DNA of 64,000 bases from Planctomycetota bacterium (GTDB taxonomy: Bacteria; Planctomycetota; UBA8108; SXIK01): positions 1,248,001 through 1,312,000 of the forward strand of contig OZ244999.1 of the NCBI GenBank assembly GCA_965223265.1. The letters run 5' to 3'. Shown piece after piece: positions 2,593 through 9,985 of the stretch. Each line of letters starts with the position of its first letter. The first letter of the stretch is position 1. The notes below the pieces were generated by a model that was not told the origin of the DNA, made no database searches, and saw only the letters and a program-made list of their open reading frames with translations. The position numbers were made by a program, and so were the translations under genes.

Positions 2593-4152
2593 CTACTCTG
2601 GCAGGTACTCGAAGCGTCGACCCAATCGAATCATCGTCTGCACGAGGTCGGACTTGGCGTTCTCGCGGGCCCGATCGAACCCGTGAATCTCCGGGTGTTC
2701 GTCGGCTTTGAGAACGACGACGCCGGTCTGGCCATCGGCGAGCCTCGTCGACATGGTGATCGCGCGTATTCCCCCCTGACCCACATAGGGCTCCCCGGCA
2801 GGAACGACTTCGTAGTCTCCCTCTTCCAACGCTTGCTCCATGAGTAACTCGACGAGGAGGTTTTTGTGGGTCTCCGTCGCCTTGTAGTTGGCTTGAAAGA
2901 TGCCCCATGCGCGCACGAGTTCCGCTTCGAGCTCGATCGAAGTCTCGTCCGTGAAGAGGGTCTCGTGCGCTAGTTCGAGGAAAGCGTCGAGTTTCATCTC
3001 CCCGAGCATGTCCGCATCGTACTGTGCGAGCTTGGCGAGCTCAGGCGGAACCGGCGCGTCTGCTGGCTCCTCGGCCGCGGTCGGGTCGTCCGGTGACTCA
3101 ACCGGAGCCGGCTGTGCCCGCAGCTGCCGCAAGGTGTCTTCAAGTGCTCGATTTCGAGAGACCATCTCGTCGCGCTCTCTTCCGAGCCCAGCGTTCTCTT
3201 CGTTCAGCTCTTCGATGACGGCGCGGAGTTGTGTGGAAAGCTCGTCGAGCTTGTGTCGTTCGATGAGATCGTACTCTTGCATGGCACGATCTTCGTCCAT
3301 CGTGGGCGTCGTGAGCTTGACAACCGAGCCTGTCCCCACGATCAACAGAGCAGCCGCACTCGCTGTGACAAGAGCTTTTTTCGCCATGATCGTCCCTCCT
3401 ATGGACGCGGCTGTAGAGGCCACGGAAACGGAAGCTGTCTGCGACGCAGCGGTGATGGCTGGTGACGCTACTGCGCTCGAGGAGCCTTCAGCGGCCAGCA
3501 TTGACTTGGACGCTGGCATGGCGAGCGTCGTGAGAACCAGAGCGAGTGTGCGGCCACGCGTCTTCCATTCGCGCGTCGACGGGACGAGCTCCCTGATCTG
3601 CTCCTCGAACTCACGCCACAGTCGTTCGCGCAGGAGGTCCCGTGCACGCTTTAGGCGCGCCTTCACGGCAGGTACGGACAGCGCGAGGGTCCTTGCGACC
3701 TGCCTGACGGATTCTCCCTCAAAGTAGTACAAGAGAACGGTCTCGCGCAGCGACTGCGGTAGCCGTTGAATCTGGTCGGCCACGTGCGCCGTCAGCTCCT
3801 TGAGCGTTTCAGATTCCGTACTAGGCGCATAGAGCGTGTTCAGGTCGTCTGTCGGGTGGAGGTTGTTCTCTTTGGCGGCGCGGTACTGTTTGCGACAGAC
3901 GTTTCTGACGATTTGGAGAAACCACGACTCGAACGCCGCCGGCGCTCTCAGCTTGGGCAGGCTGCCGAGAGCCTTCAGAAACGCTTCTTGCACAACGTCA
4001 TCCACTGAGTCCGCGGCAATGCCGAACGCCCAAGCGATGGCGTAAGCCTTGCGCTGGTAGCGAAGCACGAGCGTTTCGAACGCGCCTGGCTTATCCGCGA
4101 TCGCGCCGCGGACAAGCAAGCTGTCTGGGAGACAGGATCTTGGGGATGTCAT
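2593..4152 (-). CDS. ECF RNA polymerase sigma factor with C-terminal TM + coiled-coil extension
   Basis: Sigma2 (DDVVQEAFLKAL, FESWFLQIVRNVCR) and sigma4 (LYYFEGESVRQVARTL...VKARLKRARDLLR) motifs; hydrophobic segment then coiled coil. Start moved to ATG 4152. Confidence 0.9.
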   Translation of the reverse strand: MTSPRSCLPDSLLVRGAIADKPGAFETLVLRYQRKAYAIAWAFGIAADSVDDVVQEAFLKALGSLPKLRAPAAFESWFLQIVRNVCRKQYRAAKENNLHPTDDLNTLYAPSTESETLKELTAHVADQIQRLPQSLRETVLLYYFEGESVRQVARTLALSVPAVKARLKRARDLLRERLWREFEEQIRELVPSTREWKTRGRTLALVLTTLAMPASKSMLAAEGSSSAVASPAITAASQTASVSVASTAASIGGTIMAKKALVTASAAALLIVGTGSVVKLTTPTMDEDRAMQEYDLIERHKLDELSTQLRAVIEELNEENAGLGRERDEMVSRNRALEDTLRQLRAQPAPVESPDDPTAAEEPADAPVPPELAKLAQYDADMLGEMKLDAFLELAHETLFTDETSIELEAELVRAWGIFQANYKATETHKNLLVELLMEQALEEGDYEVVPAGEPYVGQGGIRAITMSTRLADGQTGVVVLKADEHPEIHGFDRARENAKSDLVQTMIRLGRRFEYLPE

Positions 4153-4159
4153 TGCATCT

Positions 4160-4200
4160 TTCCAAGATCTTGTTTGGGCGGTTTGGTTACGAGAAAAATT
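4160..4200 (-). promoter_or_regulatory. Possible ECF-type (autoregulatory) promoter
   Basis: Minus strand reads ttttctcGTAACCaaaccgcccaaacaagatct directly upstream of the ECF start; the AAC-containing -35 is typical of ECF promoters. Confidence 0.35.
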
Positions 4201-4371
4201 CGAAATCTTTGAGATCGCCGACCAGAGTCTAACCTGCGCGAGTTGTGGCGAGTATGAGCCGAGGCGCACACGAGTGACGATGGATCGGCGATCTCAAGGA
4301 CTGAGGATGATGGAAACTTAGGGCATGACAGACTCGAACGCGCCCGACGAGTCGCTTAAGATGCCAAGCCT

Positions 4372-6087
4372 ATGAGCACCCCGACCTCGACGAAAAAGTC
4401 AGCCCGATTTTGCGGCAGACTGACGCTCCTTGTTTTTCTTGCTTTCGGCGCAGCCGTCTCCGCTGTTGAGTTTGTGGGCACTGTGGTTGACGCTAGCACA
4501 AACCGGGTGATTCCAGCCCGCGTCTATGTCAAAGGAGCAGGCGACCGTTGGCTCTTTGTCGAGTCGGTTGCCGCCGACGGCTCCGCCTTGACCTACCGTG
4601 AAGAGTGGGCGCCGATGGAAGACTCGGTCGAAAAGCACACGACCGTGTCTGCTCACCCCTTTCGCATCGACCTTGAACCCGGCGAGTACGAGATCACGAT
4701 CGAGCGTGGCAAGGAGTATTTGCCTTTGAGCGAAAAGGTCGTCGTGGAAGATCGAGCGATTCGAAGGACCTTTCGACTCGTCAGGTGGATCAATATGGCC
4801 GCGCGCGGCTGGTATTCCGGCGAGACGCACGTACACCGCCGCATTGAGGAGCTACCGAACGTCATGCTCGCCGAGGATCTGAACGTTGCGTTCCCGGTGA
4901 CGTTTTGGACGATTAACGCCTACGAGGCCCCTGGGCTCGAGCCGTCGCCGCTCCGGCGTCAGGGACCGTCGCCGTTCGGGGCTCGGAAGGACCTTGGAGC
5001 GCAGATGATTGCGGTCGACCGCACGCACGTCATCTTTCCGCGCAACACCGAGTACGAGGTTTTTAGCGTCGACGGCAAGTCACATACCCTGGGCGCGCTC
5101 TTCATCCTCAATCACAAGACAGTCTTTCAGCGTGGGATGCCGCCGGTCGCGGAGATCGCCCGACAGGCGCACCACGAGGGAGCGTTGCTCGACCTCGACA
5201 AACACAATTGGCCGTGGTCGATGATGCTCGTGCCGATCGCCAAAGTTGACCTCTACGAACTGGCAAACAACCACGTCTGGCGCACCAGGTTTGGCTTCAG
5301 GCGTTCGTCGACAAAACCGCCGGAGTACATGAAGCTGGAGAGCGATGAGGATGGCTTGACCGAGTGGGGCTGGCTCGAATTCGGATTCCAGAATTACTAT
5401 GCGCTGCTCAATTGTGGATTCCGCCTGCAGCCAACGGCCGGCACCGCGTCCGGCGTCCACCCCGTGCCTCTCGGCTTCGGCCGCGTCTACGTCCAGCTCG
5501 ACGGTTCATTCGACGGCGAGCGTTGGATCGACGGGTTGAGGCGTGGCCGGAGCTTTGTTACGACCGGGCCGATGCTCTTCGCCACGCTTGACGGTCAACA
5601 TCCTGGGCACACGTTCAGCGAGGCCAAGCCACGCGAGGAGCCGTACCTCCTCCGCATAGAATCGGTCAGCCGGCGTCCGCTCGACAGGATCGAGGTGATC
5701 GTCGATGGCCAAGTCGATCAGACGCTGCGACCTGATGCCGGTGAGACTGCACGGCGGACGTCGTCGGGCGCCTATGAGGTGGTGCGCGAGGTCACCCTTA
5801 CGATCAAAGAATCATCCTGGGTCGCGGTGCGCAGTTTCCATGACGAAGGCCCGGAACACCTTCGCTTCGCACACACTGCGCCGTGGCACATAGAGATCGG
5901 GGACCAGCCGGTACGGCCACGAAAGCCTGAGGTCGACTTCCTCATTCGACGCTTGCGTGACGAGATCGAGCGCAACAAAGATGTCCTACCCGAAGCCGCC
6001 ATGGCTGAGTTTGAGTCAGCTTTGAGAATCTATGAGCAGCTTCGCAGTCGCATCGACGATGAGCCGCATCCTCCCGGTCGCGGATGA
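4372..6087 (+). CDS. CehA/McbA-family metallohydrolase, exported
   Basis: Signal peptide; GWYSGETHVH, YYALLNCGFRLQPTAGTASGVHPVPLGFGRVYV and GRSFVTTGPML motifs. Confidence 0.8.
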   Translation: MSTPTSTKKSARFCGRLTLLVFLAFGAAVSAVEFVGTVVDASTNRVIPARVYVKGAGDRWLFVESVAADGSALTYREEWAPMEDSVEKHTTVSAHPFRIDLEPGEYEITIERGKEYLPLSEKVVVEDRAIRRTFRLVRWINMAARGWYSGETHVHRRIEELPNVMLAEDLNVAFPVTFWTINAYEAPGLEPSPLRRQGPSPFGARKDLGAQMIAVDRTHVIFPRNTEYEVFSVDGKSHTLGALFILNHKTVFQRGMPPVAEIARQAHHEGALLDLDKHNWPWSMMLVPIAKVDLYELANNHVWRTRFGFRRSSTKPPEYMKLESDEDGLTEWGWLEFGFQNYYALLNCGFRLQPTAGTASGVHPVPLGFGRVYVQLDGSFDGERWIDGLRRGRSFVTTGPMLFATLDGQHPGHTFSEAKPREEPYLLRIESVSRRPLDRIEVIVDGQVDQTLRPDAGETARRTSSGAYEVVREVTLTIKESSWVAVRSFHDEGPEHLRFAHTAPWHIEIGDQPVRPRKPEVDFLIRRLRDEIERNKDVLPEAAMAEFESALRIYEQLRSRIDDEPHPPGRG

Positions 6088-6441
6088 TCAAGAGGATTTG
6101 GGAACGATCCAACGTACTCAGCTACGACTTCGGGATCCGACACGCAAACCGCGGGCCGCGACGGTAGGGACATATCGCTACTCCTTCGAAACCCGTCGTG
6201 TCCAAGAGACGAAGCGATCAAGTCCCCGCGTTGTTTTCGCTCGTCCGGCGCGGAGGTCATCGACTACCATCGAACTATCAGACCGGACTCGACATCGTGC
6301 GCGTCGCAGAGGGCTGGGCAAGGAAGCTTTCTTGCTTTGACCGCCATGAAATACCACTGACGTTAACGTTAAGCGAGAAACCGCTGTTCTTGATACAGCG
6401 GCGGGTGACGAATCCATCAAGAGGCGGAGATCATCGCGGTT

Positions 6442-7602
6442 ATGAAGAAACTCATCCTTATCGCATTGATTTTGAACGTCGTGATTCTGGCGGGTCATTT
6501 TTGGCGGCAGTCGTCGGTTGCGGAGCAGACTCAGTTCGCGGTCGAAAACGGCGATGTGAATGGGGATCTGGCCATCGACATCAGCGATCCGGTTTACTTG
6601 CTGCTCTATCTCTTCAAAGAGGGCAACCCGCCGGTAGCGATCGCGCAGGAGAATCCCGAGCTGGAATCTCGAGTGGCCGCGCTGGAGGCGGTGCACAGCG
6701 TCCAGGAGCCACCGTCTCCGGATCCTGCGGTGTCCTTAGACCGCAGGATGTTTTTACGCGTCGATCAGATCGACGGTGGAAGCGAAGTTGAGGGGCGCGA
6801 AGGTTGGATCGACGTGGTGGCGCTCGACGAATCTGTCACCCTTGGAGCTGGTGGCGTGCTCCGTCTTCTTGTCGCCGTCGACCAGGCCGCACCGCTCCTT
6901 GTCGGCAGAGCCTACAGCGCTTCGCCGATCTCTGACGTGTCCCTCACGATGGAGCGCCTCATCCCGGGCGGAGCATCGACCGAGGTGTTCTACTCCATCA
7001 AGCTTGACTCGGCGACGGTCCAGAGTTACCGCGTTCTCGCAAGTGGTCTTCATGCCGAAGTGGCCTTCTGCTACGACCGCGCTGAGCATGAGTGGCTCGC
7101 CGGTGGACAGGTCCTCGCCCGTATTGGTGCGTGCTCAAGTGGGGTCGATTCGCTTGGAACCTCTTCCACCCCGCTCGCACGCGATCCAGAAGTTCCTGCA
7201 GACCGCAGAATCTTTCTTAACCTCGACGGAATTAGCGGTGGTAGCGAGGCTCCTCGGCGGAGCGGTTGGATTGACGTCCTAGCGGTCGACGAGAGAGTCA
7301 CCGAAAGCGCCGCTGGTGAGCTGCGTCTCCTGGTTGCTTTTGACCAATCGGCCCCGGTTCTCATCGATAACGCGTTCGACGGTTCAATTCTTGAACGTGT
7401 TCGCGTTGAGATGGAGCGTCTGAATCCCGATGAAGGATCGAGGGAAACCTACTATTCGATCGAGCTCGCCGCCGCGACTGTGAAACGCTACCGCATTCTA
7501 CGCAGCGGCCTTCACGCCGAAGTCGTTTTTTGCTATGGCAGCATCGATCACACTTGGCATTCCGGTGGCCAGATCCGAACGGCCGTCGGTGCGTGCGAAT
7601 AG
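6442..7602 (+). CDS. Exported protein: dockerin repeat + two tandem Hcp (T6SS tube)-like domains
   Basis: N-terminal signal/TM; NGDVNGDLAIDISDPVYLLLYLF (dockerin EF-hand); two repeats MFLRVDQIDGGSEVEGREGWIDVV..VDQAAPLL..FYSIKLDSATVQSY..EVAFCY and IFLNLDGISGGSE..GWIDVL..FDQSAPVL..YYSIELAAATVKRY..EVVFCY matching the Hcp pattern. Confidence 0.75.
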   Translation: MKKLILIALILNVVILAGHFWRQSSVAEQTQFAVENGDVNGDLAIDISDPVYLLLYLFKEGNPPVAIAQENPELESRVAALEAVHSVQEPPSPDPAVSLDRRMFLRVDQIDGGSEVEGREGWIDVVALDESVTLGAGGVLRLLVAVDQAAPLLVGRAYSASPISDVSLTMERLIPGGASTEVFYSIKLDSATVQSYRVLASGLHAEVAFCYDRAEHEWLAGGQVLARIGACSSGVDSLGTSSTPLARDPEVPADRRIFLNLDGISGGSEAPRRSGWIDVLAVDERVTESAAGELRLLVAFDQSAPVLIDNAFDGSILERVRVEMERLNPDEGSRETYYSIELAAATVKRYRILRSGLHAEVVFCYGSIDHTWHSGGQIRTAVGACE

Positions 7603-7633
7603 CCTCACACACGCCCATATCTGAAGGATCTCC

Positions 7634-9985
7634 ATGAAGCGTTTCTTTTCGTGCCGAGGGGTCTTAATTACCCTCTGCGTCGTCTCTGTCGGCGAGATCG
7701 CTGCTGACGAGGCCGAGCGGTTGACGGAGGTTGCCGCCCAGAACGTCCCGTCGTACGTCGTTCATCGAGTCAAGTCGAGAATCGTCATTGACGGAAGAAT
7801 CGACGAGGAAGACTGGCGACACGCCAAGAGCGTCGGCAACTTTGTGTTCGGGTACTTGAAGAAGGAAACGGGCGATGAGGAACAGACTGTCTTCAAAATA
7901 CTTTGGGACGATACCCAGCTCTATTTCGCAGTGATTTGCGAAGACCGTTCCCTCTTGAGTCGACACACCGATCGTGACGGCCGCATTCCAGAAGATGACA
8001 GTGTGGAAGTCTACATCACACCGAATCCAGAGAAAGCGCATCGTCACTACGCTTTCTATGCGAACGTTCTCGCAGCTCTATACGACGAGAAATTCGCGGC
8101 AGACGGAACCCGAATTCAGAAGGAGGTGTCCGGCAAGATTGAGGGTAGAAAATCATCCTGGGACTCGAAGGGCGTACTCGTCGCGACGAGGTTCGTCGGT
8201 ACGCTGAACAATCACGAGGACACGGATCGTTTCTGGTCCATGGAAATGGCGATTCCGTTCGAGAACTTCGCTGATTCTTTGGCGCGTTTGCCACCGCGGC
8301 CGAACGACGTCTGGAGACTCAACCCGAATCGCCACGCCTACATGCCGGACAAAAGCTGTCTCTACAGTCAGTGGGCGCCCACCATCGCGACCACTGGCTC
8401 GTTTTGGGGTCCCGAGTTGTTCGGCAAGGTGGTCTTCACAGACAGATCAGTTTCCGAGGCGAAGAGGTCGCTGTTGTTTGTTGACTGGCACCACGTCGAA
8501 ACTGGCCGTCTGAAGCCGACCTACGACCCCGAACGCTTGTCGGCGGCAGGCAGAGAGCAACTCGAGAACACGAAGAAGGTTTGGAACATCATTCCAGACT
8601 ACTCCGGTCACGGAATGAAGCGCGTCAAGCTGGCGTACGGAGTGCGCATCCGATGCGAAAAGGCGAGCAAGAGTGAGCCGTGGCTCGAGGCCGATCAACC
8701 CTGGGAGCAGCGCATCGGTGGCTATGTGACCGTGATTCAGGAGGACGGCAAGTACCGCTGCTGGTACGCCGCGACGCTGACAAAAGTGGCGAGAGAACAG
8801 CTGACCGGCCCTGATCTCGACCAAGACCCGCCAGAGACGTTTTTGGCGTACGCCGAAAGTGTCGATAGCGTTCGGTGGGTGAAGCCGGCCATGGGAATCT
8901 ACCATGTCCAAGGCAAACCGACCAATCTACTCACGTTCCATGCGCGTGAGACAGCCATTTTCCGGGATGACTCTGCACCACCCGAGGAGCGTTACAAGTG
9001 CTTCAAGTTTGGTCGACTGCCGGACACCGAGGGCGAGCATCCACGTTACGCACATGGTCTCTACGGTTCCGTGTCGCCGGATGGGTACCACTGGACACCC
9101 CTTCCTGATCCGCTTCTCACCTACTTTCACGACACACAGAACGTCGGCGCTTGGGATCCAGTCCTCAGAAAGTACGTTGGCTACTTCCGTGGCCATCACA
9201 ATGGCCGCGCCATTGGACGCAGCGAAACCGACGACTTTCGCAAGTGGCCGCCGGCGCGTGTCTTTTTCGCTCCGGGGCCGGAGGATTCTCCCTTCGATGA
9301 TTACTACACCAATGGATTCACTTTCTATCCCGGCGATCCCACGGTGCGTCTTCTCTTTCCCGCGATCTACCATCATGACACCGACCAGCTCGATATCCGT
9401 TTGGCGGTCAGTCGAGACAACTACGCCTGGAACTGGGTCTCCCATGAACCGATCATCGACATCGGGAACCCCGGCGAGTGGGACTGCGGCAGTCTTTACG
9501 CCGGCCCCAACCTTGTGCGACTGCCGGACGGCCGACTGGCGCTGCCGATTTCCGGAGCCCAGCAGACGCACAACGAGAGCTTCGATGTCTACGAAGACAT
9601 GCAGGGCAGAGAGTTTCAAACTGCTTGGGCGATGTGGGAAGACGGTCGTCTGGCGGGAATCGAAGCATCCGAGCGCGGAGAGTTCTGGGTACCTTTAGAG
9701 GTCTTCGATGGGGACCGACTGACCATCAACGCGCGCACGAGTCGAGTTGGAAAAGTTGAGGTTGCCCTCCACGCGCCGTACGGTCGACGCACGACTCAAC
9801 CGATTCCAGGGTACACGTTCGCGGAGTGCGTCGCTTTCAACGGCGACGCAACGGCGGCTCCACTCGAGTGGAAAGGCGGCAATCTGGCGGAGCTGCGCGG
9901 CAAGAAACTCTTTTTACACTTTCGTCTGAGCAGCGCGAAGGTGTTTGGAGTGCGTGTCGACTCCACGGAGGTTCTCGATCGTTGA
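7634..9985 (+). CDS. Exported CBM9-like domain fused to a GH32/GH43-like five-bladed beta-propeller
   Basis: IVIDGRIDEEDW, LWDDTQLYFA, DDSVEVYI, WSMEMAIPF (CBM9-like); YAESVDSVRWVKP, SPDGYHW, HDTQNVGAWDP (propeller hydrolase). Confidence 0.7.
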   Translation: MKRFFSCRGVLITLCVVSVGEIAADEAERLTEVAAQNVPSYVVHRVKSRIVIDGRIDEEDWRHAKSVGNFVFGYLKKETGDEEQTVFKILWDDTQLYFAVICEDRSLLSRHTDRDGRIPEDDSVEVYITPNPEKAHRHYAFYANVLAALYDEKFAADGTRIQKEVSGKIEGRKSSWDSKGVLVATRFVGTLNNHEDTDRFWSMEMAIPFENFADSLARLPPRPNDVWRLNPNRHAYMPDKSCLYSQWAPTIATTGSFWGPELFGKVVFTDRSVSEAKRSLLFVDWHHVETGRLKPTYDPERLSAAGREQLENTKKVWNIIPDYSGHGMKRVKLAYGVRIRCEKASKSEPWLEADQPWEQRIGGYVTVIQEDGKYRCWYAATLTKVAREQLTGPDLDQDPPETFLAYAESVDSVRWVKPAMGIYHVQGKPTNLLTFHARETAIFRDDSAPPEERYKCFKFGRLPDTEGEHPRYAHGLYGSVSPDGYHWTPLPDPLLTYFHDTQNVGAWDPVLRKYVGYFRGHHNGRAIGRSETDDFRKWPPARVFFAPGPEDSPFDDYYTNGFTFYPGDPTVRLLFPAIYHHDTDQLDIRLAVSRDNYAWNWVSHEPIIDIGNPGEWDCGSLYAGPNLVRLPDGRLALPISGAQQTHNESFDVYEDMQGREFQTAWAMWEDGRLAGIEASERGEFWVPLEVFDGDRLTINARTSRVGKVEVALHAPYGRRTTQPIPGYTFAECVAFNGDATAAPLEWKGGNLAELRGKKLFLHFRLSSAKVFGVRVDSTEVLDR

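Follow-up and report, generated by a model that had tools for sequence, protein, structure and literature searches.

Hcp is commonly taken as a marker for a type VI secretion system (T6SS) and as a tube that is assembled in the cytoplasm. What, then, is the role of an Hcp fold that purifying selection maintains although the genome has no T6SS? This question is raised by the open reading frame (ORF) P0001, located at positions 6442-7602 (+ strand) of the window, i.e., the whole analyzed stretch of 64,000 nucleotides (G000:C1:1248001-1312000). The genome, G000, is a single contig of 9,179,496 bases. P0001 is an intact single ORF with an ATG start and 386 codons plus stop. It was found to carry a tandem-duplicated Hcp fold behind a conserved leader, and it is proposed to be an exported, T6SS-independent derivative of Hcp, three chains of which would close a six-domain ring, either surface-bound or periplasmic. 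This proposal is held to be just on the probable side. The parts of the gene are as follows.

6421-6429, + strand: putative ribosome-binding-site-like sequence GAGGCGGAG, 12 nt 5' of the ATG, read from the sequence
6442..7602, + strand: whole ORF P0001, 386 aa plus stop
6442..6522, + strand: leader, residues 1-27, with MKK n-region, hydrophobic h-region and possible signal-peptidase site SVA↓EQ (hydropathy, modelled helix, conservation)
6544..6618, + strand: single dockerin-type Ca-binding loop plus helix ENGDVNGDLAIDISDPVYLLLYLFK, residues 35-59 (phmmer, leader consensus)
6655..6702, + strand: short helix PELESRVAALEAVHSV, residues 72-87, possible coiled-coil stalk (model, consensus)
6733..7137, + strand: Hcp domain 1, residues 98-232, with Cys210 and Cys231 (Pfam, repeat alignment, model)
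7138..7194, + strand: Ser/Thr/Pro-rich inter-domain linker, residues 233-251 (predicted local distance difference test (pLDDT) <50 at 231-250; sequence)
7195..7599, + strand: Hcp domain 2, residues 252-386, with Cys364 and Cys385 (Pfam, repeat alignment, model, VIA-align)

Fold and duplication of the two Hcp domains

The initial annotation, made from the sequence alone, had described two repeats with the Hcp pattern and had suggested a comparison with Pfam family PF05638. Both sequence profile and structure bore this out. First, T6SS_HCP (PF05638) matched P0001 in two stretches with an E-value of 2e-21 (77.1 bits; cut-off 23.5). In a six-frame search of the genome, these two domains (38.2 bits at window positions 6751-7095 and 41.2 bits at 7213-7557) were the only matches to the family. 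Second, the repeats were aligned to each other without gaps and shared 73 of 132 residues (55%; E 3e-52), a similarity far beyond chance. At the nucleotide level, identity was 61.6%, with pS of 0.69, pN of 0.28 and dN/dS of 0.19. Thus, the duplication is old, and both copies have been under purifying selection. Third, an AlphaFold2 model from a 25-row alignment had a mean pLDDT of 81.1 and a predicted template modelling score (pTM) of 0.45. Both beta domains were mostly above a pLDDT of 90, and the linkers at residues 85-98 and 231-250 were below 50.

Foldseek returned 58 matches in the PDB at E<=1e-3, and the named top rows were all Hcp. Hcp1 of enteroaggregative Escherichia coli (EAEC; 4hkh_A) was matched with E 2.4e-9 and TMt 0.80, and VIA-align superimposed the two with Z of 19.3 and a root-mean-square deviation (rmsd) of 1.6 Å over 128 residues. 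Z was 15-19 for proteobacterial-type Hcps, about 12 for those of Bacteroidota and at most 10.8 for tubes of phages and extracellular contractile injection systems (eCIS); these values concern domain 2, domain 1 being found in a few weaker rows only. At the sequence level, phmmer found no match to P0001 among PDB sequences at E<=1. BFVD gave 30 matches at E<=1e-3, mostly tail and tube proteins with TM of at most 0.56, and added nothing beyond the PDB result. In the ESM Atlas, Hcp clusters were found at 0.91-0.92 for the Hcp part and the leader only at 0.84, which serve as leads only. Taken together, P0001 carries a true tandem-duplicated Hcp fold.

The domains are trimmed. In comparison with six canonical planctomycete Hcps, each lacks 16 residues in the extended loop between beta2 and beta3, in agreement with the shortened loop noticed in the sequence before, and is also 6 and 8 residues shorter in two later loops. 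As described in PMC4650826, Hcp forms hexameric rings, the extended loop touches the adjacent ring and loop mutants do not stack. Since 16 residues are gone from this stacking loop, a ring of P0001 would probably not build a T6SS-like tube.

The conserved pair of cysteines seen in each repeat was located at residues 210/231 in domain 1 and 364/385 in domain 2. Where canonical Hcps read FNY, the first cysteine of each pair takes the place of the N; the second is located at the C-terminal end of the domain. No cysteine was present at either of these columns in the aligned canonical Hcps. The pairs fit an oxidising compartment, in which they may form disulfides.

Absence of T6SS genes, and the leader module

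The genome was searched in six frames for VipA, VipB, TssF, TssK, TssM (IcmF-related), Phage_GPD and PAAR, and none of the seven families was matched, while an E. coli control was matched in each search. Since the tssB, tssC and vgrG families were among them, the view that P0001 lacks a T6SS context held for the whole of the sequenced contig. Some Planctomycetacia possess a T6SS, as stated in PMC6461901. A survey of Hcp genes discarded those bearing PEP-CTERM signals (PMC8262886); since the survey, as described there, had such genes to remove, P0001 is not the only exported protein with an Hcp domain in the databases.

Two contractile-injection gene sets were found in G000. An eCIS-like cluster at C1:310-332 kb (L060/L061, 310001-345000) contains sheath, gp19 tube, Pvc16_N, AAA ATPase, gp25, baseplate J, Phage_base_V spike, Tail_P2_I and DUF6519 genes. 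A second, partial set at about 6.275-6.282 Mb (L069, C1:6275700-6282200) contains baseplate J, gp25, CIS_tube and gp19 tube genes and adjoins housekeeping genes. Membership of P0001 in these clusters was rejected, the clusters being about 0.93 and 5.0 Mb away and having tube genes of their own.

P0001 begins with MKK, and the following 15-residue window (residues 4-18) has a mean Kyte-Doolittle hydropathy of 3.0; residues 2-24 were modelled as a helix. The hydrophobic N-terminus described before was thus confirmed. Read by eye, SVA↓EQ (residues 25-29) obeys the -3/-1 rule, and P.NA↓Q-like sites are present in homologues. From its sequence, the leader could equally be a cleaved Sec signal peptide or an N-terminal signal anchor.

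The EF-hand that follows had been interpreted as a dockerin through which the protein would be displayed. Its homology to dockerins held: in phmmer, residues 31-72 aligned with the Dockerin_1 proteins P0003, P0005, P0008 and P0010 (Pfam Dockerin_1 at 1e-31 to 1e-51). However, Pfam Dockerin_1 did not match P0001 itself at E<=1, and the protein has one EF-hand loop-helix segment (35-59) and not the two tandem ones that define a dockerin, which weakens display by means of a dockerin. The short coil LESRVAALE does lie within a modelled helix (residues 72-87), albeit one of low confidence; homologues have longer coils at this stalk position.

The N-terminal part is widespread. P0001 found matches in all 41 related genomes, with 150 matches listed and 273 further ones; among the 150 listed, all except P0001 itself fell within residues 1-126. 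When 1.84 billion representative proteins were scanned, 1119 matched P0001 at E<=1e-3, and most of the best 150 hit the N-terminal part. The consensus of 32 aligned leaders reads MKKL....L.LNA.LL.GR.WQEL...A....A.ENGDVNGDG..D.SDAVYLL.WLF.GGP.PVA.A...P.L..RVA.LE. At least 80% of the 32 leaders retained NGD.NGD...D..YLL..LF, and L..RVA.LE is the consensus in the stalk. In G000, the leader profile matched 326 ORFs, nearly all via dockerin-like repeats, and full coverage was reached by P0001 only. Cohesin gave four matches in this genome; the ORFs also bear dockerin repeats, and three of the matches were above the cut-off:

C1:9018731-9020668: cohesin-like ORF
C1:1524434-1526491: cohesin-like ORF
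C1:2392477-2393733: cohesin-like ORF

A Pfam scan of 45 leader proteins revealed Lcl_C in 14, VgrG in six (P0017, P0043, P0069, P0086, P0114 and P0129), MopE in four, UspA1-repeat/beta-roll in three, FGE-sulfatase in two and phage tail collar in one, while 15 had no Pfam match. Extracellular-type cargo was thus found behind the leader in 30 of the 45. The six VgrGs consist of Phage_GPD plus Phage_base_V, with Gp5_trimer_C in addition in two of them and collagen triplets in some. Three ORFs of this kind were read directly in their genomes:

L049 (G002): leader-VgrG ORF, 850-aa frame
L051 (G007): leader-VgrG ORF, 950 aa
L050 (G014): leader-VgrG ORF, 842 aa, with GPQGPPGPPG triplets

Neither VipB nor Hcp was matched in genome G002, which is 96% complete and shares its family with the genome of the window. 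VipB was not matched in G007 either, and G014 does carry it. Trimeric cargoes are thus found behind the leader, among them VgrG, Gp5_trimer_C and collagen triplets. Judged by these sequences, it is a conserved, reusable module that stands in front of a wide range of cargoes in related planctomycetes. No paper on Hcp tandems with a Sec leader, six-domain Hcp chains or leader-tagged VgrG was found in the literature covered, which did not extend to subscription journals and supplements.

Six-domain relatives, proposed ring closure and rival explanations

Relatives of the Hcp region proper are few. Among the best 150 of the 1119 proteins, only P0002 (29% identity) was better than 1e-30, and a close relative of the Hcp part was not present in the collections searched. 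Word-index homologue searches returned only the query or the query plus one member of its alignment, and a genome_contigs scan with patterns from both repeats matched 47 stretches with no relative among them. The best 150 included 17 Hcp-region relatives, 16 of which were scanned with Pfam (P0012, 5036 aa, was left out). Exactly six T6SS_HCP stretches were found in 11 of the 16 (P0004, P0006, P0007, P0014, P0021, P0032, P0041, P0056, P0062, P0115 and P0121). P0002 had five and an end that looks cut, P0060 and P0081 had three each, and P0130 and P0148 had four. With our own Hcp profile, six domains were found in 10 proteins.

The six-domain proteins also bear Big_13, PKD, Calx-beta, Dockerin_1, RTX or Hint modules. 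P0156 (2164 aa), a cluster mate of P0014, lies in the record of an uncultured Planctomycetaceae metagenome-assembled genome (L062, 8001-14492). VipB was not matched in this genome, and no T6SS gene was present among the ten neighbouring ORFs scanned. The N-termini of P0021, P0006, P0007, P0041, P0081 and P0121 have, by eye, a basic stretch followed by an LE(P/A/S/R)R.(L/M)LS-like motif, which may be a common N-terminal sorting signal of large planctomycete proteins. P0130 and P0148 have clear N-terminal signal peptides, and at their C-terminus a PxTG-like motif precedes a hydrophobic stretch and basic residues, an arrangement that by eye resembles a sortase anchoring signal of a Gram-positive organism.

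In order to place the domains of P0001, a tree of 121 Hcp domains was calculated (IQ-TREE, LG+G4). The two domains were sisters (100/100) and were joined by the canonical single-domain planctomycete Hcps L036, L037 and L042 (97/95). According to this placement, the tandem arose by its own duplication of an ordinary Hcp and not from the six-domain lineage. In eight of the 10 six-domain proteins, all six domains formed one clade, with identities of 33-93% within a protein. Domain positions were not shared across these proteins, each position requiring 10 changes of a possible 10. Six domains may thus either have been reached repeatedly or have been kept via concerted evolution. In both cases, the recurrence of six suggests that a closed ring is constrained to contain six domains, to which the four-domain pair is an exception.

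We therefore arrive at the following proposal. P0001 would leave the cytoplasm by means of its Sec-type leader, which would then either be cleaved off or serve as an N-terminal anchor. The single dockerin-type Ca repeat and the short helical stalk would act as a lineage-specific N-terminal display module, and the cargo would be two minimal Hcp domains derived from a canonical planctomycete Hcp by internal duplication. Three chains would most likely assemble into a closed pseudo-hexameric ring of six Hcp domains, which the leader module would tether on the cell surface or within the periplasm. With the stacking loop trimmed, the ring would probably be a stand-alone scaffold or binding ring for some ligand and not an injection tube.

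The pseudo-hexameric ring had been put forward in the initial annotation, and support for it is indirect: the 11 relatives with six and the two with three Hcp domains per chain, the trimeric cargoes behind the leader, and a precedent in phage T5. The T5 protein pb6 is a duplication and fusion of a tube domain, and its three-fold tube is pseudo-hexameric, like hub and spike proteins (PMC5717097). Both pb6 and the gp27/VgrG hub have two tube-type domains per chain, as does P0001, and there three chains build the pseudo-hexameric ring, as described in the same source. However, pb6 polymerises into a phage tail and has an Ig-like domain, whereas P0001 stems from a separate duplication of Hcp, begins with a Sec-type leader and has lost part of the stacking loop.

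Several observations weigh against the proposal of an exported ring. The NCBIfam model TIGR03344 (TssD) scored P0001 with 46.4 bits, below its cut-off of 58.9. The completeness of G000 was estimated at 91.65% although the genome is one contig. The leader was judged from hydropathy and its putative cleavage site, by eye, from the -3/-1 rule. The stalk helix is short (16 residues) and has a pLDDT of about 52-67. The cargoes of the leader include, in addition, FGE-sulfatase and MopE-type proteins, not known to us as trimeric. As for the number of domains, the four of P0130 and P0148 are no divisor of six and so misfit a simple divisor rule; the tree gives the domains of P0001 no specific kinship with those of six-domain proteins, and clustering of domains by protein could be due to concerted evolution and not to repeated amplification. 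Finally, the neighbouring genes hint at no ligand or function beyond a theme of glycan degradation.

The rival that fares best retains export and dispenses with the ring: the Hcp domains would be independent beta-sandwich spacers or binding modules, in the manner of Ig-like domains, in a monomer or dimer. The pTM of 0.45 and the linker pLDDT below 50, i.e., no fixed arrangement of the domains being predicted, are in line with this, as are the existence of four-domain relatives with signal peptides (P0130 and P0148) and the trimming of three loops, interface-forming ones included. Yet if no ring were closed, the preference for six (11/16) or three domains in a chain would be difficult to account for, and P0001 has kept the helix and the core strands of which the hexamer interface of Hcp is made, as described in PMC3925092. 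This alternative is regarded as rather unlikely.

A further alternative is that the rings form extracellular stacks, in the shape of a fibre or tube, via inter-ring disulfides, with the C-terminal cysteine of each domain in the role of the one engineered at position 158 of EAEC Hcp1. This C-terminal position is located at the ring-ring interface, and the engineered variant G96C/S158C formed disulfide-linked tubes, as reported in PMC3925092. VIA-align placed model residues 254-386 onto residues 2-158 of 4hkh_A and thus Cys385 beside position 158, at the interface between hexamers; the identical cysteine pair is, moreover, kept in both repeats. Stacking appears improbable nevertheless, since the extended loop is 16 residues shorter, Cys231 is internal with the linker right after it, and the strand with the partner cysteine (FCY) is, in the model, close to this same sheet end, which suggests a bond within the domain.

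That P0001 is a cytoplasmic tube or adaptor of the contractile injection systems of this genome or of an undetected T6SS, its N-terminal helix being no export signal, is very doubtful: the eCIS-like cluster and the second partial set exist, but both have their own tubes at about 0.93 and 5.0 Mb distance, the leader is common to obviously extracellular proteins, and the neighbours are glycan-degrading enzymes. Equally hard to credit is a functionless relic of a lost T6SS, fused by chance to a leader, for although the per-domain Pfam scores (38 and 41 bits) rank near the bottom across the 98 Hcp-carrying planctomycete genomes and a close relative was found in none of the collections searched, the frame is intact, the repeats show 55% identity without an indel and a dN/dS of 0.19, and the model is confident.

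Genomic setting and relation to known systems

The gene content around P0001 indicates a planctomycete host and glycan breakdown as the local theme. Genes with the planctomycete-specific domains PSCyt1, PSCyt2 and PSD1 are present, as are genes for a polysaccharide deacetylase, a sulfatase, a BNR protein, a DUF4838 protein and a sigma factor of the extracytoplasmic function (ECF) type. An ORF of 558 aa (2593-4269, - strand) has ECF-type sigma regions 2 and 4 within its first 215 residues, followed by a long C-terminal extension without Pfam match. The genes next to P0001 are:

4372-6087: CehA/McbA-family metallohydrolase, upstream of P0001
7634..9985, + strand: CBM9-domain protein, 783 aa, starting 32 bp past the stop of P0001

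The CBM9 gene is possibly co-transcribed with P0001. A scan for promoters and terminators found no convincing terminator between the two, but was uninformative, with no promoters and six terminator-like sites in comparison with 3.8 ± 2.4 expected. The locus was found in four DNA sequencing runs, all of a single study, and in no RNA run among those listed. The GC content at 6001-8000 (57.5%) is inside the range of the window (56.8-63%) and gives no hint of a horizontal island.

In comparison with Hcp/TssD of the T6SS (4hkh, EAEC Hcp1; 1y12, Pseudomonas aeruginosa Hcp1), P0001 has the same fold (Z 17-19, rmsd 1.6-2.0 Å), shares the core motifs and descends from a planctomycete Hcp clade. T6SS Hcps are leaderless, single-domain proteins of about 160-170 aa, whereas P0001 has 386 aa, a leader and two domains of about 132 aa. 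It further differs by its dockerin repeat and stalk, the loss of 16, 6 and 8 loop residues, the cysteine pairs and the absence of T6SS genes. The metagenomic multi-Hcp proteins (P0006, P0007, P0014/P0156, P0041 and P0062, among others) are akin to P0001 in combining tandem Hcp domains with extracellular-type modules. They differ from it in having six or three domains, full-length loops, far larger size and other N-termini. For Planctomycetes, cohesin/dockerin surface complexes ('planctosome') have been proposed, and surface proteins in which a dockerin-type module comes after the signal peptide were described in PMC6461901. In contrast to these, P0001 has one EF-hand repeat fused to leader and stalk, and its cargo is an Hcp tandem and not an enzyme.

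More tentatively, planctomycetes may have moved T6SS parts to the outside. The leader module would export Hcp-derived rings and, in T6SS-less relatives, VgrG-like spikes, and extracellular rings could be built from one, two or three chains with six, three or two domains, respectively. This would constitute a new class of surface structures that are made of injection-machine parts, depend on Sec and do not contract, maybe including disulfide-stitched fibres; such a scenario is possible but speculative.

P0001 is a warning against inferring a T6SS from an Hcp match alone. If both ring and export hold true, it would represent an exaptation of parts of an injection machine into surface architecture and would explain the frequent count of six domains in tandem Hcp proteins. 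Natural Hcp rings of a single or few chains would then also be available as scaffolds for protein engineering.

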